Shown: positions 1,262-36,420 of the stretch, in pieces
How positions within the stretch are numbered: position 1 is the first letter of the stretch
Layout of the letters: the number at the start of each line of letters is the position of its first letter
NCBI GenBank assembly: GCA_050249455.1
Contig: JBFWQM010000002.1
Span: forward strand, 8,888-72,887
Direction: 5' to 3'
Source of the DNA: Rhodospirillaceae bacterium
GTDB lineage: Bacteria; Pseudomonadota; Alphaproteobacteria; MPNO01; VGEU01
Length of the DNA stretch: 64,000 bases
Notes under the pieces: model-generated
Seen by the model: only the letters and a program-made list of their open reading frames with translations
Databases searched by the model: none
What the model was told of the DNA's origin: nothing
Position numbers and translations under genes: made by a program

Positions 1262-1831
1262 TCAGTCCAGCGCCACCGGCGTCCGGTCCACCCGCTCGCC
1301 GACCCGCGGCACCAGGAACGGCACCAGCTTCCGCGCCACCGTCCACGAGTCGATGCCGCGCAGGTCGTGGTTGGCCTCGCCCTGCCACAGGCAGCGGCCG
1401 TTGGCCTTGTCGTGGATCATGACCGTCAGGCGCACCGTGTCGTCGCGCGCCGCCGCGCCGCCGCGCCCCGAGGGGCCGGTCCAAAGGGGCACGCGCACGC
1501 GCTCCTGGCCCTCGCGGTAGCTCTCGACGTCCGCCGGGTCGACCGCCTGGCCGCCGCGCAGGCCGGTGCCGTTGTTCACCGAAACCTCGAATCCGGCGCG
1601 CAAACCGGCCACGGGGGCGACCTGATGCCCGGCGCGCGTCAGCGCCTCGCCGATTGCCGCCGCGAGGTCGACGTACTCCGGCGCGTTGTCGGGCAGCACC
1701 AGGTCGATGGGCGCCCCCGCCGGCACGACGCCGCAGTTGATCGCCACGACATAGCCGTCCTCCGCCCCCGCCCGGGCCGCGACGGCGGCCATGACCAATC
1801 CGATCAGCAGTGCGATCGACAAGGCGCGCAT
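1262..1831 (-). CDS. secreted hypothetical protein
   Basis: N-terminus MRALSIALLIGLVMAAVAARAGA is a signal peptide. Composition looks natural. I recognise no catalytic motif. Confidence 0.6.
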   Translation of the reverse strand: MRALSIALLIGLVMAAVAARAGAEDGYVVAINCGVVPAGAPIDLVLPDNAPEYVDLAAAIGEALTRAGHQVAPVAGLRAGFEVSVNNGTGLRGGQAVDPADVESYREGQERVRVPLWTGPSGRGGAAARDDTVRLTVMIHDKANGRCLWQGEANHDLRGIDSWTVARKLVPFLVPRVGERVDRTPVALD

Positions 1832-1957
1832 GTGGCCCCCCGGTTCCCCGCTTGGTGTAGGCGTTTGCGACGCTGCGTGGAAGGGCCTTCGCGACGGCCG
1901 GCCAACCGTTCGTTAACCCTGTCGCAATAGCGTGGCCGGACCTGCGCACCGGGACCG

Positions 1958-3190
1958 ATGATGAGCGAACTCGCGCTCGATTACGAAACCGCCAAGGAGA
2001 TCGCCCGCAACGGCGCGGAAGGCGCGCGGGCGACGCTCGCGGCCGACCCGGCGACCGCGCCGGAGCTGCTCTATTTCCTGTCGCAGGACGCGTCCGCCGC
2101 CGTCCGCCGGGCCGTGGCCGGCAACCCGGCGACGCCGCGCCAGGCGGATTCGATGCTGTCGCGCGATTCCGACCACGGCGTGCGGGTGGCGCTGGCGCGC
2201 AAGGCGGTCGGCGTCGGCCTGTCCGACGGCGAGCGGAAATCGCTGTGGCGCATGACCTTCACACTGCTCGAAACGCTGGCGACCGACGCGGTCGTCCAGG
2301 TCCGTCGCTCGCTCAGCGATGCCCTGCGCAGCCTGGCCGACGCGCCGCGCGCGGTGGTTCTCAAGCTGGCGCGCGACCCGGCGCCCGACGTCGCGGTGCC
2401 GATCCTGCGCAGCTCGCCCGCCCTGACCGACAGCGACCTGATCGAGCTGGTGCAGGAGGCCTCGACCGACTGGGCCCAGGCGGCGATCGCCGACCGCCCG
2501 ACGGTGTCGGCGGCGGTGTGCGACGCGCTGGTGGCCCGCGGCTCGGTGCCAGCGATCGCGACGCTGCTCAACAACCGCAATGCGTCGATCAGCGATATGG
2601 CCCTGGAACGCATCGTCGACCAGGCGCAAGGGGTCGAGGCGTGGCACGCGCCGCTGGCGCATCGCCCGTCGATGCCGCAGCGGCTGCTGGAGCGGATCGG
2701 CCTGCTGGCAGCCATGCCGCGGCGCGGCGCCGCTGCGGCCAAGGCGGCCGTCTACGCCCCGGGCGGCGAAGCCCGGCGTCCGGCCGCGGCCGGGGCCGCC
2801 GACTGGGCCAAGGGCACGCCGGCCGAGCGATCGGCGCGGGGCTGGGAGACGCCCACCGAGCGGGCACGGCGGCTGTTCGCGGCGGGCCAGCTCACCGAGG
2901 AGCTGGTCGCCATGACGCTGGAGAACGGGCGGCGGGAATTCGCCGTCGAATCGCTGGCGCTCAAGGCGGGCCTCGGCCAGGACGCGGTCCGGCGGATCCT
3001 CGATTCGCGCAGCCCGCGGTCGATCACCGCGCTGTGCTGGAAGGCTGGCTTCACGATGCGCTTTGCGATGGAGGTGCAGCGGACCCTGGGCGGGGTGGCG
3101 CCGTCCGAGCTGCTGAACGCCCGCCACGGCATCGACTACCCGCTGACGCCGGAGCAGATGACCAGCCAGCTCGCGATGTTCGCCGGCTGA
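1958..3190 (+). CDS. DUF2336-like repeat protein
   Basis: 410 aa with HEAT-like repeated segments (AVRRAVAGNPATP, GVRVALARK, VQVRRSLSDAL), laid out as in alphaproteobacterial DUF2336 proteins. Confidence 0.65.
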   Translation: MMSELALDYETAKEIARNGAEGARATLAADPATAPELLYFLSQDASAAVRRAVAGNPATPRQADSMLSRDSDHGVRVALARKAVGVGLSDGERKSLWRMTFTLLETLATDAVVQVRRSLSDALRSLADAPRAVVLKLARDPAPDVAVPILRSSPALTDSDLIELVQEASTDWAQAAIADRPTVSAAVCDALVARGSVPAIATLLNNRNASISDMALERIVDQAQGVEAWHAPLAHRPSMPQRLLERIGLLAAMPRRGAAAAKAAVYAPGGEARRPAAAGAADWAKGTPAERSARGWETPTERARRLFAAGQLTEELVAMTLENGRREFAVESLALKAGLGQDAVRRILDSRSPRSITALCWKAGFTMRFAMEVQRTLGGVAPSELLNARHGIDYPLTPEQMTSQLAMFAG

Positions 3191-3197
3191 CGCCGCG

Positions 3198-3950
3198 CTA
3201 GCGCAGCGGGTGCGCCGTCGTCAGGGCGTCGATTTCCTCGGCCGGCATCGCCCAGGCCAGCATCTCGCTGCGCATCCGCACGCGCTGGACGCTGACCTCG
3301 TGAAGCGCCGTCCTCATCCGGGCGAGGTCGTCCGGCGCTGCTGCTGCTGCGGCGGCGTCCCTGGCGGCGCGGGTGTAGTGGTCCTTCTCGTCGACGTAGA
3401 TGACCTTCATCGCCGCCGCCAGCAGCTCCTCGAACGCGCCGCCGGAAAGGCGCGACATCTCGCGGAAGGTGCTCGAGCCGCCGCCCTCGGTCAGGCCCAT
3501 CACCGCTTTCAGGCAGGGGTCGCCCGACTCGACGTAGCGCCTGCGCATCGCATTGAGGATCTTGTCCTCCGGCAGCTGCTGCGGATCGTCGGGCGTCAGG
3601 TCGCGGCCGAGCAGGTACTCCAGCACCTCGGCGAGCACGAGGTAGTGGTTGAACTCGTCGGTCATCATGTGCATGCGGGCGTAGATCTCGCGCCGGTCGA
3701 TGCCGCGGTCGAGCTGCGGGAACATCGCGCACACCTCGGCGAACTCCATGTGCAGCGCGTTGGCGTAGCCCTCGGTCGAGCCGTAGCCGATCGAGGGGTT
3801 GAGCTCCTTGTAGATCGCCGCGCGCAGGTAGCGCACCCAGTCCTCGCGCGTCGGCCTGCCGGCGCAGAAACGGCGCGCCACCTCGGCCTCGGCATCCCAG
3901 AACGGCCGGGCGACGGCGATCAGCTCCTCGACGGTCCGGTCGGTATCCAT
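3198..3950 (-). CDS. uncharacterised ferritin-like (putative di-iron carboxylate) protein
   Basis: Start taken at the internal ATG (MDTDRTVEEL), which follows a GGAG. Two ExxH motifs (TDEFNHY, VDEKDHY) plus candidate partner glutamates (HMEFAE, LTEGGG) fit a four-helix-bundle di-iron site. Confidence 0.55.
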   Translation of the reverse strand: MDTDRTVEELIAVARPFWDAEAEVARRFCAGRPTREDWVRYLRAAIYKELNPSIGYGSTEGYANALHMEFAEVCAMFPQLDRGIDRREIYARMHMMTDEFNHYLVLAEVLEYLLGRDLTPDDPQQLPEDKILNAMRRRYVESGDPCLKAVMGLTEGGGSSTFREMSRLSGGAFEELLAAAMKVIYVDEKDHYTRAARDAAAAAAAPDDLARMRTALHEVSVQRVRMRSEMLAWAMPAEEIDALTTAHPLR

Positions 3951-12258: not shown

Positions 12259-12466
12259 GTCATGCGCGGACTTGATCCGCGCATCCAGCGCGCACGGTCA
12301 GTGCGCAAGAGACTCGTCTGCGCCGCAAGGCCGCGCTGCTGGATACGCGGATCGGGGACCGAAGGTCACCGATGCCCGCGTACGACTCCATTACTGGGGC
12401 AGATGGCGATTCCAATACCGTGTGTCGGCGGCTACCGGTAAGCCGCGGGTCGAGCCCGCATATGAC
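12259..12466. repeat. ~210-bp MITE-like element with hairpin-forming ends
   Basis: The left end GTCATGCGCGGACTTGATCCGCGCAT forms a 9-bp stem. The right end GCGGGTCGAGCCCGCATATGAC is, when reverse-complemented, a degenerate copy of the left end. Confidence 0.4.
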
Positions 12467-23044: not shown

Positions 23045-23115
23045 CCCCCTCCCGCGAGGGGGGGGCTAGTAGAGACTTCCCCTCCCCTCACGGGAGGGGG
23101 TTGGGGGGAGGGGGC
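23045..23115. repeat. ORF-less derivative of the DUF559-cassette repeat (truncated right arm, 12-nt spacer, full left arm)
   Basis: 23045-23066 is CCCCCTCCCGCGAGGGGGGGGC. The spacer is tagtagagactt. 23079-23115 is CCCCTCCCCTCACGGGAGGGGGTTGGGGGGAGGGGGC. Confidence 0.6.
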
Positions 23116-23130
23116 GGAAAAATGGAGTCT

Positions 23131-24690
23131 TCAGCCGCGCCCCTGCTTCCACAGGGCGACCAGGCCGTTGCGGTCGACCTTGCCGCGGTCGGTCTTGAGG
23201 ATGGTCTCGACGAAGACGATCTCCTTCGGCCGCTTGAAATCCGGCAGCGCGGCGGCGCAGTGTGCCTGCACGGCGGCGGCATCCAGCGCGCGGCCGGCCT
23301 TCGGCGCGACGTAGCACACCACCGCCTCGCCGTAGATCGGGTCGGGCACGCCGACGGTGGCGGCCTCCGCGATGTCGGGATGGGTCATCAAGAGGTTGTC
23401 GATCTCCAGCGGCGCGATGTTGACGCCGCCGCGGATGATCAGGTCCTTGGCGCGGCCGGTCACGTAGAGGAAGCCGTCCGGGTCGAGATAGCCGAGGTCG
23501 CCGGTCTTCAGCCGGTTGCCGCGGATCTGCTGCACGGTGCCGTCCTCCAGCAGGTAGCCGAAGGCGTTCTGCGCGCCGCCGATCTCAATTTCGCCGACCG
23601 CGCCCTGCGGCAGCTTCTGGCCGTCCTCGCCGACGATGCGCAGGTTCTGGTAGAGCCCCGGCCGGCCGACCGAGCCGATGCGCCGCGTCTCCGGGCTGTT
23701 GCCGGCGACCACGCCGCCTTCGCTCATGCCGTAGAGCTGGACCAGGCGGATGCCGTAGGTCTCCTCGAACCGGCGGTGCTGGTCGAGCATCAGCGGCGCG
23801 GTCGACGACGACATGAAGCGCAGGCTGCCGAACTGCCGCGTCCGCACGTCGACCGGGCGGTCGAGCAGCATGTTGATGACGGTCGGCACGCCGATCGCGA
23901 TGGTCGGCTTCAGGTCGCGCACCCAGTCGAAGAACCGGCTCTGCGAGAAGCGCTTTGCGAACAGCAATGTCGCGCCCGACAGCAGGCACGGGTGCAGGCA
24001 CAGCATGTGCGACGACGCCCAGCTGAACGAGCGGTATTCCAGGATGCGGTCGGCCTCGCTCAGTCCCCACATCGCGACCGTTTGCTCGGCGATGCGCTGG
24101 TAGTCGTCGAAGCTGTGCATCACGCCCTTGGGCTTGGCGGACGTGCCCGAGGTGAAGCTGATCAAGGCGAGGTCGTCGGGCGCCGCGGTGCACGCCAGCT
24201 CCGGCGCATCCGGCAGCGCATCGACCGCCGCGAACAGCCCGCCGTCGTCGCTGCCGAACGCGCCGAACGGGATCCAGTCGCCGGGCGCGCCGACGCCGAG
24301 CGCCTCCGGGTCGAGCGTCCTGTCCCACAGCACCAGCTTCGGCTGCAGCCGCGACAGCATCTCCTTCAGATGGGCCGACTGGATCTCGACGTTGACCGTG
24401 CAGTAGGTCGCGCCGGCGCGCATCACCGCGTAATAGAGGACGACGTTCTCCAGCGAGTTGTCCGTCATCACGGCGATGCGGTCGCCCGGCCCGATGCCCC
24501 GGTCCGCGCAGAACCGGGCGAACCGGTTGGCGAAGCGATAGAGCGCGTCCCAGCCGACCGAGGTGCCCTGGTCGATCGAATGCAGGAACGTCCGCCCGCC
24601 GTGCCGCGCCGCGCCGGCGCGCAGCAGGTCGAGCACGCTGCGGAAGCTGCCCGGCGGCGGGGCGGCGGGGATGTCTGCGGTCAAGCTCAC
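23131..24690 (-). CDS. AMP-dependent synthetase/ligase (acyl- or aryl-CoA ligase)
   Basis: Contains SFTSGTSAKPKGV (the AMP-binding motif), YGMSEGG, TGDLGYLDPDGFLYVTGRAKD and the terminal K in GKVDR. A GTG start at 24690 after GGGAGA is preferred, because the longer track ORF runs through the DUF559 cassette in another frame. Confidence 0.85.
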   Translation of the reverse strand: MSLTADIPAAPPPGSFRSVLDLLRAGAARHGGRTFLHSIDQGTSVGWDALYRFANRFARFCADRGIGPGDRIAVMTDNSLENVVLYYAVMRAGATYCTVNVEIQSAHLKEMLSRLQPKLVLWDRTLDPEALGVGAPGDWIPFGAFGSDDGGLFAAVDALPDAPELACTAAPDDLALISFTSGTSAKPKGVMHSFDDYQRIAEQTVAMWGLSEADRILEYRSFSWASSHMLCLHPCLLSGATLLFAKRFSQSRFFDWVRDLKPTIAIGVPTVINMLLDRPVDVRTRQFGSLRFMSSSTAPLMLDQHRRFEETYGIRLVQLYGMSEGGVVAGNSPETRRIGSVGRPGLYQNLRIVGEDGQKLPQGAVGEIEIGGAQNAFGYLLEDGTVQQIRGNRLKTGDLGYLDPDGFLYVTGRAKDLIIRGGVNIAPLEIDNLLMTHPDIAEAATVGVPDPIYGEAVVCYVAPKAGRALDAAAVQAHCAAALPDFKRPKEIVFVETILKTDRGKVDRNGLVALWKQGRG

Positions 24691-25172
24691 GCGCGTCTCC
24701 CAGGAGCGAAAGCCCCCTCCCCTCGCGGGAGGGGGTTGGGGGAGGGGGTGTCCGAAGCGCATCGCCGCTCGACCGTCTCCGCGATCGTCTGCACCACGCT
24801 TTCGAGATTGGTCAGCACGTCGTGGTTCCAAAATCGCATGATTTCGTAACCTTGCGCGACAAGCCACGCGTCGCGCTCCGCATCGCGCCGACGATCCGGT
24901 GCACGCGTGTGCTGTCCGCCATCGATTTCGACCGCGATGCGCGCGGGAAAGCAGACGAAGTCGACAACGTAGGGGCCGAGCGGTACTTGACGGCGGAAGC
25001 GCAGTCCGCCGAGGGCGTGACGGCGGAGCGCAAACCACAGACGAGTCTCGGCTTCGGTCATGCGCTTGCGCAGCGAGCGTGCCCGCCCGGTGAGGTCGGC
25101 GGACGGCACCGCCCCCTCCCCCAACCCCCTCCCGCGAGGGGAGGGGGCTCTTCCTCGCGCGGTCGGGCTCAT
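24687..25172 (-). CDS. DUF559 (Vsr-like / PD-(D/E)xK-type endonuclease fold) protein, copy 1
   Basis: Core block TEAETRLWFALRRHALGGLRFRRQVPLGPYVVDFVCFPARIAVEIDGGQH...RDAWLVAQGYEIMRFWNHDV. Both protein termini are encoded by the flanking G/C repeats (PSPRGRGLGEG, PSPNPLPRGEG). The ATG at 25061 is an alternative start. Confidence 0.75.
   Translation of the reverse strand: MSPTARGRAPSPRGRGLGEGAVPSADLTGRARSLRKRMTEAETRLWFALRRHALGGLRFRRQVPLGPYVVDFVCFPARIAVEIDGGQHTRAPDRRRDAERDAWLVAQGYEIMRFWNHDVLTNLESVVQTIAETVERRCASDTPSPNPLPRGEGAFAPGRRA
24712..25148 (-). mobile_element. DUF559 cassette 1: ORF bounded by perfect 37-bp inverted repeats
   Basis: 24712-24748 is GCCCCCTCCCCTCGCGGGAGGGGGTTGGGGGAGGGGG. 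25112-25148 is its exact reverse complement. The DUF559 core lies between them. Confidence 0.5.
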
Positions 25173-25176
25173 TGCT

Positions 25177-26685
25177 TCACGCGAACCCGGTGTCGCCCAT
25201 GAACCGCAGATATTCCGACTGCTGCGCCTTCATCTGGCGGATTTCCTCGGGCGTGAACCACTTGGTGAAGTCCATCTGCTGGACCGGGTAGACCGCGCGG
25301 GTGAAGTGCTCCTTGGCGGCGAGCGGGACGGTGGCGTCGATGCCGAGGCCGCCGTCGAACATCGAGACCTGCTCGGCGGCCGACATGCGCTCGGCCGGCA
25401 TGTAGGCGTGGCCCTTGCCGCCGGCGGCACCGGTGATGATGTCGGTGTGCGGGTTGACCCGGGTCGACATCGCCCACAGCACGTCCTCGGGCTGGTAGAT
25501 GTCGATGTCCTCGTCGACCACCACCACCATGCGCATGCCGCGCGCCAGGCCCATCACCGCGGCCAGCAGGTTGCGCTGCAGCCCCTCGTCGGAGCGGCGG
25601 CGCTTCTTCACCTGGATCACGATGCCGCCCCACATCATGAACGCGGTCGGCGCGGTGACGTCCAGCACGAAGCCGGGCGCGATGCGCTCGCACAGCTCGA
25701 AGTAGTTGGCCGCCGCGAACGGCACCCACTGCCAGATCGAGCCGAGATGCGGCACGAAGTAGATCGGCTTGTCCTTGCGATGGGTGATCGCCGTCACCTC
25801 GAACCGCCGCGCGCGGTAGGCGCGGCCCATGTAGCGCGCCCATTCCGGGTGGAACATCGCGGTGCCCTGCGATGCGGTGCGCTCCGCCTCCTCGGTCTCC
25901 CAGACCCGCTGGCTGGGCACGATGTAGCCCTCGATCACGTACTCGGCGTTGGCCACCGCATAGGCGTCCACCGTCTTCGCCTTGACGATCTCGATCGGCG
26001 CGCCGCCCATCCGCCCGGCGCAGCCGAGCTCGTCGTCCACCGTCGGGAAGATCGCGGCGTTGAGGAAGCCCATCCCCATCAGCTCGACCATCGGCGGCGG
26101 CGAGACGTTGACCGTGCACGGGATGCGCTGGTCGTAGTTGGCGTCGGCGATCTGGTCGCCGTGGCCGCCCGGCACCATGTTGATCGAGGCGTAGTCGTTG
26201 CCGCGGAAGCTCATGCGGTAGAACGACAGCTGGTTGCCGCCATTGGCCCACTTGCCGCTGATGCAGTGGACGCCGGAGCCGAAGAAGCGGCCGCCGTCGA
26301 GCGGGGTGTGCTGCACCATCGGCAGGACCGCGAAGGGGTTCACCTCCTCGCGCGGGATCACCACCTCCTGGCACGGCGCGTCCTTGACCTCGACCGGCGG
26401 CAGCGGGTTCTTGATGCCGTCCAGCACCTTGAACTTGGTGTCGCGCATGTGGTCGACGCCGAGCAGCTTGCACAGCCGCTCGCGCCGGCCCCACAGGCTC
26501 GCGATCAGCCGCGCGTTGGGATAGCCGGTGACGTTCTCCATCAGGAACGCGGGCCCGTCGTCGAAGGCCTTGTTGATGGCGGTCGCCTCCAGCACCGGGC
26601 TGACCGGGGCGGCGACCTTCTTCACGTCGGGCCCGAGCCAGTCGAGCGTGGTCCTGAGGCTCTTGAGCGCTTCCTCGCGGTTCAT
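25177..26685 (-). CDS. UbiD-family decarboxylase, paralogue 2 (divergent)
   Basis: Start at MNREEALK. UbiD-like blocks are AFLMENVTGYP, GGRFFGSGVHCI, NQLSFYRM and the GGIVIQVKKRR region. About 502 aa. Confidence 0.8.
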   Translation of the reverse strand: MNREEALKSLRTTLDWLGPDVKKVAAPVSPVLEATAINKAFDDGPAFLMENVTGYPNARLIASLWGRRERLCKLLGVDHMRDTKFKVLDGIKNPLPPVEVKDAPCQEVVIPREEVNPFAVLPMVQHTPLDGGRFFGSGVHCISGKWANGGNQLSFYRMSFRGNDYASINMVPGGHGDQIADANYDQRIPCTVNVSPPPMVELMGMGFLNAAIFPTVDDELGCAGRMGGAPIEIVKAKTVDAYAVANAEYVIEGYIVPSQRVWETEEAERTASQGTAMFHPEWARYMGRAYRARRFEVTAITHRKDKPIYFVPHLGSIWQWVPFAAANYFELCERIAPGFVLDVTAPTAFMMWGGIVIQVKKRRRSDEGLQRNLLAAVMGLARGMRMVVVVDEDIDIYQPEDVLWAMSTRVNPHTDIITGAAGGKGHAYMPAERMSAAEQVSMFDGGLGIDATVPLAAKEHFTRAVYPVQQMDFTKWFTPEEIRQMKAQQSEYLRFMGDTGFA

Positions 26686-29091: not shown

Positions 29092-29901
29092 CTAGCACCC
29101 GCCGCCGGCGCGGTCGAGGAACGCGGCGAGCGCCGTATCGAACGCCGCCGGGTCCTCCAGGCAGCCGTAATGTCCGACGCCGGGAAGGAGGGCGAACGCC
29201 GCGCCCAGCGCATCCGCCACCGCGCGGCAGGCGGCTTCCGGCGCCACCTTGTCGGCGCCGCCGCACATCACCAGCGCCGGCGCCGCAATGCGCGGCGCGT
29301 CGGCGATCACGTCGGCGCGCGCCAGCATCTCGACCATGCCGCGATAGCCGGCAGGGCGCACCGCCGCCATCGTCGCCACCACGTCCGTGACCAGCGCCGG
29401 CGCGGCGCCGGGCCCCAGGACGCCCGGCCCGCGCGCCGCCGCGAAGCCGGCCGGCCCCAGCGCCGCGAACGGCTCCAGCCGCGCCCGCCTGGCGGCCTCG
29501 CGCGCCTCGGGGGCCAGCATCGCGGTGCCGGCGAGGCCATGGCAGAACGTGAAGCTCAGCGCGCGGGGCGGGAACAGCCGGCAGAACGCGGCTGCGATCG
29601 GCGCCCCGGCGGATTGCCCGACCACGTGCGCCCGCTCGACCTTCAGCTTATCGAGCAGGCCGGCCAGCGCCCGCGCATAGTCGTCCGGCGACGGCGTTTC
29701 GTGGGCCAGGTCGTCCGACCCGCCATATCCCGGCGCATCCCACGCGATCACCTTGAACCGCGCCGCGAAGCTGTCGAGCTGGTTCGCCCACGTCTGCGAC
29801 GCGCCGCCGATCCCATGCAGCAGGACCAGCGCGGGACCGGCGCCGGCCTCGCGGAAGGCGATGGTGCGGCCGTCGACTCGAGCTTTCCGGAGCGGCGCCA
29901 C
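29092..29901 (-). CDS. alpha/beta hydrolase
   Basis: GTG start. Contains LLHGIGG, the nucleophile elbow GQSAG and GVGHYGCLE. Confidence 0.8.
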   Translation of the reverse strand: MAPLRKARVDGRTIAFREAGAGPALVLLHGIGGASQTWANQLDSFAARFKVIAWDAPGYGGSDDLAHETPSPDDYARALAGLLDKLKVERAHVVGQSAGAPIAAAFCRLFPPRALSFTFCHGLAGTAMLAPEAREAARRARLEPFAALGPAGFAAARGPGVLGPGAAPALVTDVVATMAAVRPAGYRGMVEMLARADVIADAPRIAAPALVMCGGADKVAPEAACRAVADALGAAFALLPGVGHYGCLEDPAAFDTALAAFLDRAGGGC

Positions 29902-30329
29902 TACTTCCCCTCCCCTCGTGGGAGGGGGTTGGGGGGAGGGGGTGCCTGCCCCAGAGATGCTCTATCGCGCACGATGGAATCGATGCGCTGCAGGACGCCC
30001 TCCAGGTTCTCCATTACGTCGTTGTTCCAGAAGCGGAGAACGATGAACCCGCTCAGGCCGAACCAGGCGTCGCGCTTGCCATTCGCGTCACGGCCCGCAT
30101 CGGTGTTGTGCTGTCCGCCGTCGATCTCGATGACGACGCGGGCTCCGTAACAGACAAAATCCGCGATGTAGGGGCCGAACGGTACCTGGCGGCGGAAGCG
30201 CAGGCCGGCGATCTGCTTCGATCGGAGTGCCTGCCAAAGCTTCTTTTCCGCGTCGGTCATGGCGACGCGGAGGGCGCGGGATTTGGAAATGGGTGGGATC
30301 GAGTCCGTGGCTGGCGCCCCCTCCCCCAA
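29901..30329 (-). CDS. DUF559 (Vsr-like endonuclease fold) protein, copy 2
   Basis: Core block TDAEKKLWQALRSKQIAGLRFRRQVPFGPYIADFVCYGARVVIEIDGGQH...RDAWFGLSGFIVLRFWNNDV. The track start is a TTG inside the repeat; the ATG at 30260 is an alternative. The C-terminus PPPPNPLPRGEGK is repeat-encoded. Confidence 0.75.
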   Translation of the reverse strand: MGEGAPATDSIPPISKSRALRVAMTDAEKKLWQALRSKQIAGLRFRRQVPFGPYIADFVCYGARVVIEIDGGQHNTDAGRDANGKRDAWFGLSGFIVLRFWNNDVMENLEGVLQRIDSIVRDRASLGQAPPPPNPLPRGEGK

Positions 30330-30353
30330 CCCCCTCCCACGAGGGGAGGGGGC
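29907..30353 (-). mobile_element. DUF559 cassette 2: ORF bounded by the same repeat family
   Basis: 29907-29942 is CCCCTCCCCTCGTGGGAGGGGGTTGGGGGGAGGGGG. 30317-30353 is CCCCCTCCCCCAACCCCCTCCCACGAGGGGAGGGGGC. The arms are near-identical to cassette 1, and the single loop substitution is mirrored in both arms. Confidence 0.5.
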
Positions 30354-30360
30354 TAATAGT

Positions 30361-36272: not shown

Positions 36273-36420
36273 GGCGGCCGCCCACCTCACCCTCCCCATC
36301 GCGTTGCGATGGGTCCCCTCCCTCTCCCCCCATGGCGGGCGGAGAGGGACGCTTCATGCCCTCTCCGCCCATTGGGGGAGAGGGTGCGAGCGCAGCGAAC
36401 GGGTGAGATGGGCGGCCGCC
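36273..36420. repeat. 148-bp composite palindromic (MITE/REP-like) element
   Basis: The 20-nt termini GGCGGCCGCCCACCTCACCC and GGGTGAGATGGGCGGCCGCC are inverted repeats (19/20). Inside are two CCCTCTCC...GGAGAGGG hairpins. Confidence 0.6.

Follow-up and report, generated by a model that had tools for sequence, protein, structure and literature searches.

A DUF559-family nuclease gene bracketed by inward-facing BoxC/PIT/TM repeats: a candidate two-part repeat-nuclease system in bacterial genomes

BoxC, PIT (potential intrastrand triplex) and TM_ECO are names for one kind of bacterial repeat (Bergler 1992; Hoyne & Maher 2000; both as cited by Holder et al. 2015, PMC4666352), which has been known since the early 1990s, occurs in hundreds of genomes and marks unstable loci (PMC4666352). 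As single-stranded DNA, the E. coli unit folds in vitro as an intrastrand triplex that is stable, as established by CD and NMR, and neither in double-stranded DNA nor in vivo was a triplex detected (Holder et al. 2015, PMC4666352). The same authors state that a purine-motif triplex of this kind does not form in RNA, summarise that PIT elements have neither promoter nor terminator activity and do not affect RNA polymerase, and report that the genes flanking the units share no consensus function (PMC4666352). No function, origin, partner protein or link to a mobile element is given for these repeats in the literature (PMC4666352).

The DUF559/YcjD family of small nucleases comprises 25,805 representatives of 50%-identity clusters and has a solved structure and no agreed function. 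The Caulobacter DUF559 protein VsrA is genotoxic and SOS-induced, and a role as a nickase of T:G mismatches, linked to a cytosine methyltransferase, has been proposed for it (PMC12907096). Here we describe a locus at which a DUF559 gene and BoxC/PIT/TM repeats occur together, and we show that this association, which appears to have gone unreported so far, recurs in many bacterial phyla.

The locus lies in a stretch of 64,000 nucleotides from a Rhodospirillaceae bacterium, referred to below as the window, in which a DUF559 gene sits between genes for a UbiD protein and a CoA ligase, all three on the minus strand (cassette 1, Table 1). The ORF matches Pfam DUF559 (PF04480) with 132.1 bits (cut-off 20.6, E 9.5e-39) over residues 27-134, and the only domain matches of its product are DUF559 and MTES_1575, both of them PD-(D/E)xK. 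The D...ExDGxxH core is intact (VVDFVCFPARIAVEIDGGQH in cassette 1 and IADFVCYGARVVIEIDGGQH in a second cassette described below), with D42, E53, D55 and H59 invariant across 25 homologues. The cassette 1 protein also matches the Vsr-fold structure PDB 3HRL (E 5e-22), and the DUF559 core profile weakly reaches the homing endonuclease I-Bth0305I (3R3P, E 0.005). Because the protein scores 97 bits against the NCBIfam YcjD equivalog PRK09767, below the equivalog cut-off of 218, we consider it a member of the YcjD/DUF559 family and not a YcjD orthologue.

Translation of this nuclease probably starts at the GTG at 25109, right behind the G-rich tail of the upstream repeat, which would yield a protein of 140 aa; an equivalent GTG is called as the start in the close relative L001. 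The ATG at 25172 merely gives the longest ORF, translating through the upstream arm, and the terminal peptides of that ORF (APSPRGRGLGEGA at the N-terminus and TPSPNPLPRGEGA at the C-terminus) are translated arm sequence. Many DUF559 proteins are annotated with N- and C-terminal extensions of the PSP..GEG type; these are translated repeat DNA and not protein features. At the other end of the gene, its TGA (24689-24687) overlaps the GTG of the ligase (24690-24688) as GTGA, in agreement with an earlier reading of this locus made from the sequence only. The GC3 of the ORF is 0.736, compared with a host mean of 0.933. Inspection of the neighbouring genes revealed no cytosine methyltransferase gene adjoining either cassette, and there was no recombinase gene among the neighbours. 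A search for defence systems returned weak domain-level PADLOC matches only. Exact-sequence look-ups gave no record for the DUF559, UbiD or ligase proteins of the window.

The DUF559 gene is enclosed by exact reverse complements of 37 nt, one in the downstream arm (24712-24748) and one in the upstream arm (25112-25148), or of 38 nt counting 24711 and 25149. In a repeat search the pair stretches to 45 nt at 93% (24704-24748 and 25112-25156). The sequence-only reading had placed a perfect 37-nt inverted repeat around a DUF559 ORF in the gap between UbiD and the ligase, and this description holds in every detail. A 36-mer of the arm gave 0 matches in 100 dinucleotide-preserving shuffles and occurs three times in the window, the third copy being that of cassette 2. 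The same reading had described the arms as built from CCCCCT/GGGGGA words; these are not ad hoc words, and the arms are instances of the known BoxC/PIT/TM motif (Holder et al. 2015, PMC4666352), in which a pyrimidine strand, its complementary purine strand and a third, purine-rich mirror block are connected by short loops. The blocks of the window arms read CCCCCTCCC-CTCGC-GGGAGGGGG-TT-GGGGGAGGG(GG). In the upstream arm of cassette 1, the hairpin CCCCCTCCC-CTCGC-GGGAGGGGG is followed by a TT linker and by the tail GGGGGAGGGGG, which faces the ORF, and the tail of the downstream arm faces the ORF as well. Across the repeat family, the tail fits a mirror of the G-strand better in 56 cases and a direct copy of it better in 17 (p 5e-6). 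By analogy with the E. coli unit, we would expect that the window unit can fold as an intrastrand purine-motif triplex in single-stranded DNA. Column counts gave a positive signal of covariation in the hairpin, made less sharp by slips of register within C/G runs.

Table 1. Positions of the two cassettes, the repeat units and the insertion limits in the window (scores from covariance model R1)
Feature	Position	Strand	Details
Cassette 1 DUF559 ORF (YcjD-family, Vsr-like PD-(D/E)xK)	24687..25172	-	longest ORF, 161 aa; PF04480 match
Cassette 1 upstream arm, one BoxC/PIT/TM unit	25109..25153	-	45.5 bits, E 4.8e-9
Cassette 1 downstream arm, BoxC/PIT/TM unit, opposite strand	24707..24751	+	49.1 bits, E 6.7e-10
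Insertion limits relative to the empty site	24688..25179	-	UbiD stop (TGA) 25179-25177; ligase GTG 24690-24688
Cassette 2 upstream arm	30314..30358	-	48.1 bits; 1 of 36 positions differs from the cassette 1 arm
Cassette 2 DUF559 ORF	29901..30329	-	142 aa; 50% identical to the cassette 1 protein
Cassette 2 downstream arm	29900..29944	+	49.1 bits
ORF-less tail-out doublet, downstream of the ligase	23045..23116		full unit 23072-23116 (+); truncated partner 23045-23065
ORF-less tail-out doublet	61503..61587		61503-61547 (-), 41.2 bits; 61543-61587 (+), 35.8 bits

As expected of BoxC/PIT/TM repeats, the motif is multi-copy, intergenic and found in inverted pairs: model R1 detects 7 full units in the 64 kb of the window, including 2 doublets, and 4 of these units flank the 2 DUF559 genes. 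The second of these genes, which is also annotated in record L093, ends in a TAG that overlaps the GTG of a downstream hydrolase gene. The arms of the two cassettes are nearly identical even though the ORFs between them share just half of their residues. The two doublets contain no ORF, and their tails point outwards. In the doublet downstream of the ligase, the partner that is truncated in the window is complete in L001, and the whole doublet is absent from the relative L082.

L082 also lacks cassette 1. Its UbiD is 89% identical to that of the window, and its UbiD and ligase genes overlap directly (ATGCGTGA), with no cassette and no arms, so that the window carries ~480 nt at this junction that are missing from L082. 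The junction is likewise empty in the more distant relatives L084, L086 and L087; it was at such ubiD-ligase loci that the sequence-only reading had proposed to look for empty sites. The comparisons were made at 77-89% protein identity, with the exact ends of the element beyond their resolution, and on this footing they show that the whole of cassette 1, arms included, came in between two formerly overlapping genes. Since a relative as close as L082 has the two genes in direct overlap, the cassette cannot be regarded as a device by which the host couples its catabolic genes. The absence of arm sequence from the empty UbiD/ligase site further indicates that the arms are cargo and not the split halves of a target, and it rules out homing into a pre-existing palindrome for cassette 1. 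At the cassette 2 site, the relative L094 carries a hairpin remnant only, a weak solo hairpin of 10 bits, and for that site a landing-pad model may apply.

Local alignment of the outer flanks revealed no target-site duplication at cassette 1 (p = 0.13), where the sequence-only reading had proposed to look for target-site features, or at cassette 2 (p = 0.51). Among 34 loci, 4 reached p < 0.05 against 1.7 expected, and those 4 are due to adjacent repeat units. The hexamer GCGTGA is present at both edges of cassette 1, but this is better explained by stop/start constraints than by a target-site duplication. These results bear on the idea of a classical transposon or MITE, whose terminal inverted repeats would be the arms and whose transposase, acting by cut-and-paste or copy-and-paste, would be the DUF559 protein. 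Such an element would fit the inverted repeats at the ends of a single ORF, the presence/absence polymorphism and the existence of ORF-less derivatives. However, there is no excess of target-site duplications in the 34 loci, and the tails of the ORF-less doublets point outwards, where simple internal deletion of a cassette would leave the reverse arrangement, and we therefore find this explanation very hard to credit. To our knowledge, the PD-(D/E)xK domain of ~110 aa has no known strand-transfer activity, and TnsA cleaves only. An integron gene cassette (attC) was also set aside, as the arms are inverted on both sides, there is neither an array nor an integrase, and catabolic genes adjoin the cassettes. 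Between the window and L001, in which the cassette has the same orientation, the cassette is not significantly more conserved than its flanks (96.2% vs 94.4% identity, p = 0.14). The divergence between the two sequences is mosaic, which hints at gene-conversion tracts.

We assembled a survey set of 80 DUF559 loci from many phyla, in which 70 genes could be tested. Inward-facing units were present on both sides of 34 of the 70 DUF559 genes, compared with 2 of 217 neighbouring genes at the same loci (p 3e-22). A bracketing inverted repeat with a best score of at least 14 was found at 49/69 DUF559 loci and at 1/405 shifted controls, and a hairpin on both sides at 55/70 loci and 0/405 controls. 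Counted from the side of the repeat, a census with the covariance model placed 97 of 175 units at most 160 nt from a DUF559 core and in the orientation of arms. The orientation rule is that the tails of the units point to the ORF. One or both arms are missing in about a fifth to a half of the loci, depending on the detector. The arm-DUF559-arm architecture was found from Chloroflexi to Proteobacteria, and the arm pattern is also present in the independent viral loci L099 and L109. Proteins with the same arm type are slightly more similar to each other (55.4% vs 53.0% identity, a 2.3-point difference), but this weak relation is confounded by phylogeny, and co-evolution of arm type and protein was set aside on both grounds. 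The multi-domain DUF559 proteins P0241 and P0242 lack arm-derived linkers and were considered not relevant.

Two lineages illustrate how genes and repeats are distributed within genomes. Azospirillum has one DUF559 gene per replicon, in a locus that is collinear and in the same orientation in 7 replicons, and doublets occupy 409 places in 40 replicons, all of them Azospirillum. In E. coli, ycjD adjoins BoxC copies, of which there is a median of 19 units per genome, and the unit beside ycjD is identical to a TM_ECO entry in Table 1 of Holder et al. 2015 (PMC4666352). The ycjD locus is collinear and in the same orientation in 3,377 E. coli genomes. Units persist in strains that lack ycjD, where eefRABCD has taken the place of the gene and no clean empty site is left; the ycjD-positive phylogroups are A/B1/C, and B2 is eef-positive. 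In both Azospirillum and E. coli, the DUF559 gene thus occupies a fixed locus with no trace of recent movement. By analogy, one or few nuclease genes together with many dispersed ORF-less units would amount to REPIN/RAYT-like behaviour.

This constancy of orientation argues against an invertible switch, in which recombination between the 37-nt arms would flip the ORF relative to the operon promoter and so turn the nuclease on or off. The arms are indeed perfect inverted repeats, and predicted targets of programmed inversion show an enrichment of the annotations 'DUF559 domain-containing protein' (odds ratio 14.3) and 'Endonuclease domain-containing protein' (9.6; Milman 2023, PMC9881135). That enrichment, however, reflects inverted-repeat geometry and not observed inversions of DUF559 genes (PMC9881135). 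With a single orientation in the window and L001 as well as in the Azospirillum replicons and E. coli genomes above, and with no recombinase gene adjacent, we give a switch next to no weight.

Another explanation is that gene and repeat have no functional link. The DUF559 protein would then be an ordinary Vsr-like repair nickase of the host, and BoxC/PIT units would be unstable non-B DNA that gathers in permissive short intergenic gaps, those beside this small gene among them; or else the host enzyme would merely tidy structures to which the units give rise. This would agree with the mismatch nicking proposed for the DUF559 protein VsrA (PMC12907096), with the absence of a consensus function among unit-flanking genes (Holder et al., PMC4666352), with the survival of units in ycjD-negative E. 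coli and with the fixed gene locus in Azospirillum and E. coli. On the other hand, the two-sided, orientation-specific arms, so much rarer at neighbouring genes than at DUF559 genes, and the recurrence of the architecture from Chloroflexi to Proteobacteria speak against it. Moreover, arms and ORF arrived together at the UbiD/ligase junction, and neither cassette adjoins a methyltransferase gene. Weighing both sides, we regard the absence of any link as unlikely.

The sequence-only reading had also raised the possibility of a device acting in RNA. The arms would pair in the operon mRNA to form a ~40-bp duplex with the ORF in its loop. This duplex would mask the ribosome-binding site of the nuclease and offer RNase III a substrate, thereby coupling or uncoupling the flanking genes. 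Thermodynamically this is possible, since the arms are paired with each other in the predicted minimum-free-energy fold (-301.8 kcal/mol, z = -8 vs shuffles). The arms agree with one another even at their loop bases, a GGAGG lies in the upstream tail ~5 nt 5' of the GTG at 25109, and a GGAGG-bearing tail shortly before the start codon is seen at many other DUF559 loci too. Nevertheless, the mirror rule that the tail follows is the one for a purine-motif triplex, a structure stated not to form in RNA (PMC4666352), and not that for a Watson-Crick switch, and the inactivity of PIT elements as promoters or terminators and towards RNA polymerase (PMC4666352) also speaks against the idea. Most viral DUF559 genes have no arms, and the empty site indicates that the host operon does not need the cassette in order to work. 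A search of Rfam over 22.5-31.5 kb found no family at the locus at E <= 1 and two chance-level matches elsewhere. Control of this mRNA cannot account for ORF-less units, and hundreds of such units and doublets would be left unexplained. An RNA duplex is therefore a secondary matter and not the best account of the arms, and we consider it quite improbable as the basis of the locus.

The explanation we favour, with moderate confidence, is that cassette 1 belongs to a two-part system of wide distribution, composed of a DUF559/YcjD-family nuclease gene and two inward-facing BoxC/PIT/TM units, that would behave like REPIN/RAYT and probably operate by nicking and homing-like gene conversion. The sequence-only reading had likened the locus to REP/RAYT elements, as a nuclease gene with a Vsr-like fold nested in its own repeat; the association across phyla, the ORF-less doublets and the empty site support this arrangement, while for the action of the enzyme we infer recognition, nicking and repair-driven spread of the units. 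The nuclease would recognise the unit, most probably in a folded or extruded form while replication or repair leaves the DNA single-stranded, and would nick at or near it. The break would then be repaired by copying from another unit-bearing locus. Such copying would homogenise the units and spread ORF-less copies, and it might occasionally carry along the ORF that lies between two inward-facing units. Within the operon, the G-rich tail may act as a Shine-Dalgarno sequence for the nuclease, and the overlapping stop and start codons may keep the downstream ligase translated.

A broader proposal, which we put forward tentatively, is that YcjD-type DUF559 proteins are the missing cognate enzymes of BoxC/PIT/TM repeats. 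As PD-(D/E)xK nickases specific for the structure of the intrastrand triplex or hairpin, they would, via break-induced gene conversion, create, homogenise and spread the repeats and occasionally themselves. Two orphans, the repeats and the protein family, would thus explain each other. If this is true, it would reveal a second class of repeat-nuclease system beside REPIN/RAYT, mechanistically independent, with another fold and a non-B DNA structure, and occurring in E. coli K-12 as well as in many phyla. It would also identify the first enzyme family with a triplex-forming repeat as its natural substrate, suggest how the reported genome instability at BoxC/PIT/TM repeats comes about, and show that small nuclease cassettes can settle within operons, between genes coupled in translation, and leave the operons intact. 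As E. coli K-12 has both ycjD and ~20 BoxC copies, the hypothesis is directly testable.

The locus can be compared with several described systems. Like free-standing or intron-borne homing endonucleases (I-Bth0305I, EDxHD family, 3R3P), it consists of a small nuclease gene in the gap between co-oriented conserved genes, with stop/start overlaps, an empty allele in a relative, no target-site duplication and a Vsr-like fold. Unlike them, it has arm copies without an ORF dispersed in the same genome, and the flanks of cassette 1 are not target halves, the empty site being devoid of arms. We know of no homing endonuclease genes that carry their own inverted repeats. With the Vsr and VsrA nickases it shares the fold family (PF04480 in the Vsr/DUF559 group), small size and a probable nicking activity, VsrA being genotoxic when deregulated (PMC12907096); it differs in being repeat-bracketed, in having no adjoining cytosine methyltransferase gene, and in being lodged in a catabolic operon with a composition atypical for the host. 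Its units resemble published BoxC/PIT elements in that they are intergenic, multi-copy and often in tandem inverted pairs, with deletions that leave hairpin remnants, but they depart from the published descriptions in bracketing DUF559 genes in fixed orientation across phyla and in having come with the gene to a new site. The likeness to REPIN/RAYT (Bertels & Rainey 2011, PMC3116915) lies in a nuclease gene flanked by inverted copies of a short palindromic repeat whose other copies are scattered through the genome, often as inverted doublets, and in a gene that some lineages, here Azospirillum, carry as a single, vertically inherited copy. In contrast to REPIN/RAYT, the enzyme is a Vsr-like PD-(D/E)xK protein and not an HUH/Y1 (IS200/IS605-like) tyrosine transposase, and the repeat has a triplex-type third strand in place of a GTAG/CGTC tag. 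The architecture of the unit is conserved across phyla instead of being lineage-specific, and in this genome two diverged paralogues have one arm type in common.

We found that the two 37-nt stretches enclosing the DUF559 ORF of cassette 1, which lies between a UbiD and a CoA ligase gene, are exact reverse complements, as the sequence-only reading had reported; counting a further flanking base lengthens the match to 38 nt, and tolerating mismatches lengthens it to 45 nt. A 36-mer of the arm gave 0 matches in 100 dinucleotide-preserving shuffles. The enclosed ORF was confirmed as DUF559 (Pfam E 9.5e-39), retains the D...ExDGxxH core and matches the uncharacterised structural-genomics protein 3HRL (E 5e-22). 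The claims that UbiD, DUF559 and the AMP-binding ligase share one strand, and that the DUF559 TGA and the ligase GTG start are joined as GTGA, also held. GC3 of the two DUF559 ORFs in the window (0.736 and 0.838) is atypical against a host mean of 0.933. The cassettes are set in a dense aromatic/alkyl catabolic cluster (window 21.6-31.9 kb; L093) with two UbiD-family decarboxylases, an AMP-dependent ligase, a Rieske oxygenase, two hydrolases, and TauD and PhyH dioxygenases; GC3 of the host genes is extreme (0.96-0.98). A Rhodospirillales MAG (GCA_050187845.1, contig JBFWXC010000004.1) was identified as the source of the sequence.

Each arm is a copy of a three-part unit of ~40-45 nt, consisting of a 9-bp hairpin (CCCCCTCCC / GGGAGGGGG), a TT linker and a G-rich tail (GGGGGAGGGGG) that on either side is directed toward the ORF. 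With a covariance model built on the unit (R1), we identified 7 full copies in the window, including copies in doublets that contain no ORF and whose tails point away from each other. A very close relative (L001) has the whole 23-kb doublet, the window has lost part of it, and a metagenomic relative (L082) lacks it. A related yet distinct composite repeat (window 36288-36385), built of CCCTCTCC/GGAGAGGG hairpins and a CCCATCGC..GCGATGGG hairpin, scored only 11-12 bits with R1 and is similar to the outer unit that precedes the Azospirillum DUF559 gene (L088 1840-1900).

Coordinates of the cassettes, repeat units and neighbouring features in the window
Feature	Position	Strand	Remarks
Cassette 1 DUF559 ORF	24687-25172	minus	
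Cassette 1 inverted-repeat core of each unit copy	24712-24748, 25112-25148		two arms; covariance model
UbiD gene	end at 25177	minus	Pfam UbiD_N/UbiD/UbiD_C
AMP-binding ligase	start at 24690	minus	GTG start
Cassette 2	29900-30358		between PhyH-like dioxygenase and alpha/beta hydrolase genes; DUF559 TAG overlaps hydrolase GTG
Cassette 2 unit copies	29900-30358		two arms; covariance model
Unit copies in ORF-less doublets	23.05-23.12 kb, 61.50-61.59 kb		three full copies; covariance model
ORF-less tail-out doublet	23045-23116		one unit 12 nt shorter than in L001
ORF-less tail-out doublet	61503-61587		slightly different stem subtype, CCCTCCCCC
Weak DUF559 match	12289-12426	plus	first 46 residues of core

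The arms of the two cassettes differ at 1 of 36 positions and their DUF559 proteins are only 50% identical, which indicates that homogenisation or replacement of the arms proceeds separately from the ORFs. A weak tblastn match elsewhere in the window (37.5% identity, E 0.058), with no unit nearby, is due to chance or else represents a decayed fragment.

A search for empty sites at the UbiD-ligase locus showed that L082 (UbiD 89%, ligase 79% identical) has neither DUF559 nor arm sequence, its UbiD and ligase genes overlapping directly as ATGCGTGA. This junction is also empty in three more distant relatives, and the site is filled in L001; the whole of cassette 1, with its arms, is therefore a derived insertion of ~480 nt. 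No target-site duplication was found at the cassettes, and we regard a classical transposon as very improbable. At the cassette 2 site, a relative with TauD-TauD-PhyH-hydrolase synteny (L094; 77% protein identity) shows only a spacer of 32 nt, in which there is one weak hairpin without a tail. Since the cassette hairpins are palindromic, they are also direct repeats of each other, and a single hairpin would remain if the stretch between them were deleted; the L094 hairpin could thus be a footprint of cassette loss or, alternatively, a landing pad. When the window was compared with L001, conservation of cassette 1 did not significantly exceed that of its flanks, where the genes are 93-96% identical. 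Divergence within its ORF (window 24752-25108) is mosaic, with 237/239 identical positions in the 5' part and 105/118 in the 3' part; a gene-conversion tract may end here.

The pairing of gene and repeat extends far beyond this genome. We sampled 80 DUF559 loci, one per species, with a core-only alignment as query, so that arms could not bias the search; they cover Alpha-, Beta- and Gammaproteobacteria, Desulfobacterota, Chloroflexi, Planctomycetota, Nitrospirota, Omnitrophota, Spirochaetes and others. A bracketing inverted repeat (best score at least 14) was present at 49 of 69 DUF559 loci compared with 1 of 405 shifted positions, and C-rich hairpins lay on both sides at 55/70 loci and at 0/405 controls. 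Inward-facing units flanked 34 of 70 DUF559 genes but only 2 of 217 other genes of the same loci (p 3e-22). Among 175 R1 matches in 445 kb, 97 lay no more than 160 nt from a DUF559 core and had the orientation of an arm. An account without any functional link, in which a host repair enzyme happens to occupy repeat-prone gaps, seems to us unlikely. Many loci have the layout (-)(+)[ORF](-)(+), in which the gene is flanked by two tail-out doublets of the kind found elsewhere without an ORF. The same gene-unit pattern was seen at L099 and L109, two independent loci of viral or proviral nature, but most viral DUF559 genes lack arms. The family comprises 25,805 cluster representatives at E <= 1e-3. 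At a Luteimonas wenzhouensis locus (L015; NZ_VOHE01000001.1, locus 1406-3755), 12 units of alternating orientation, spaced ~65-70 nt start to start, surround the gene in what looks like a BIME-like cluster.

Terminal peptides such as PSPxxGEG or PLPRGEG in many of the 120 best homologues are translated arm DNA, that is, read-through of the repeat, probably arising from start-codon or annotation choices. In public annotations (P0003-P0120), many DUF559 proteins are lengthened by such peptides at the N- and C-termini, and Bradyrhizobium-like members have two or three blocks each.

For arms with asymmetric stems, we compared the tail with the mirror of the hairpin G-strand (purine-motif triplex) and with its direct copy (Watson-Crick switch). 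We counted 56 cases with the mirror as the better fit and 17 with the direct copy (p 5e-6), with 50 and 13 perfect G/non-G masks, respectively; the linker is usually 3 nt. This mirror-type three-strand covariation indicates a structure at the DNA level. The RNA duplex proposed in the sequence-only reading survives in part: cassette 1 sense RNA is predicted to pair its arms (z = -8), and 2-10 nt often separate the tail from the start codon, so that the tail can act as a Shine-Dalgarno sequence, making RNA effects on nuclease expression plausible. However, such effects leave the ORF-less copies unexplained and are not needed by the host operon; an RNA device is distinctly improbable.

The repeat itself is a motif already described in the literature. 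The C-terminus of YcjD, the type member of the family, reads RSPSP* and continues into a degenerate arm, beyond which, ~160 nt upstream of fabI, lies a canonical unit, CCCTCGCCCCTCTGGGGAGAGGGTTAGGGTGAGGGG. This sequence is among the TM_ECO motifs listed in Holder et al. 2015 (PMC4666352), who treat it as the same element as BoxC and Hoyne and Maher's PIT elements. They report 23 copies in MG1655 and the motif in more than 260 genomes, always intergenic and often in tandem inverted pairs; single-stranded DNA forms very stable intrastrand triplexes in vitro, and none were detected in duplex DNA or in vivo. Promoter or terminator activity was absent, the loci were unusually variable, with deletions leaving hairpin remnants, and the authors explicitly report neither a mobile-element link nor a shared flanking gene (PMC4666352). 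That paper nowhere uses the words endonuclease, DUF or ycjD, and full-text literature searches found no paper joining the DUF559/YcjD family to the BoxC/PIT/triplex repeat. The only indirect hint comes from a study in which DUF559 annotations are statistically enriched among predicted targets of inversion, a result not pursued there (PMC9881135); an invertible switch is, in our judgment, scarcely credible. The pairing appears unreported, each part being known singly. In E. coli K-12 (L091; NC_000913.3 1351200-1351410), a partial copy of the ycjD 3' end (GAGACGGTGCTGGAGAATATTC..GAACCG) lies between ycjD and fabI, flanked by the degenerate arm and the canonical unit, and suggests a past rearrangement or a decayed second copy.

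Our own count gave a median of 19 units per E. coli genome (5,426 genomes). The sapF-fabI slot holds ycjD and units in phylogroups A, B1 and C and eefRABCD in the others (PMC12817139); strains without ycjD still have units. The Azospirillum DUF559 gene exists as a single copy, whose locus is the same in seven replicons, and is therefore vertically inherited. The doublet on its upstream flank recurs at 409 places across 40 replicons, all Azospirillum.

On balance, we favor, by a modest degree, the reading that the DUF559 protein is the cognate nuclease of the unit. With less confidence in the details, we propose that the nuclease would recognise and nick the unit, probably in a form folded within single-stranded DNA, and that gene-conversion repair would then spread and homogenise units, occasionally taking the ORF along. 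This proposal draws on the nicking chemistry of the Vsr family, a profile match, weak yet specific, with I-Bth0305I, a homing endonuclease of the Vsr fold, the genotoxic and SOS-induced Caulobacter VsrA, and the lack of target-site duplications. The pairing allows two old questions, the nature of BoxC/PIT repeats and the role of DUF559/YcjD proteins, to be tested in E. coli K-12. The analogy with REP/RAYT elements drawn from the sequence alone is apt in its logic. The Azospirillum pattern of a single gene and many dispersed doublets is that of REPIN/RAYT systems, but the DUF559-unit pairing has a different enzyme fold and repeat structure and probably works by a different mechanism.
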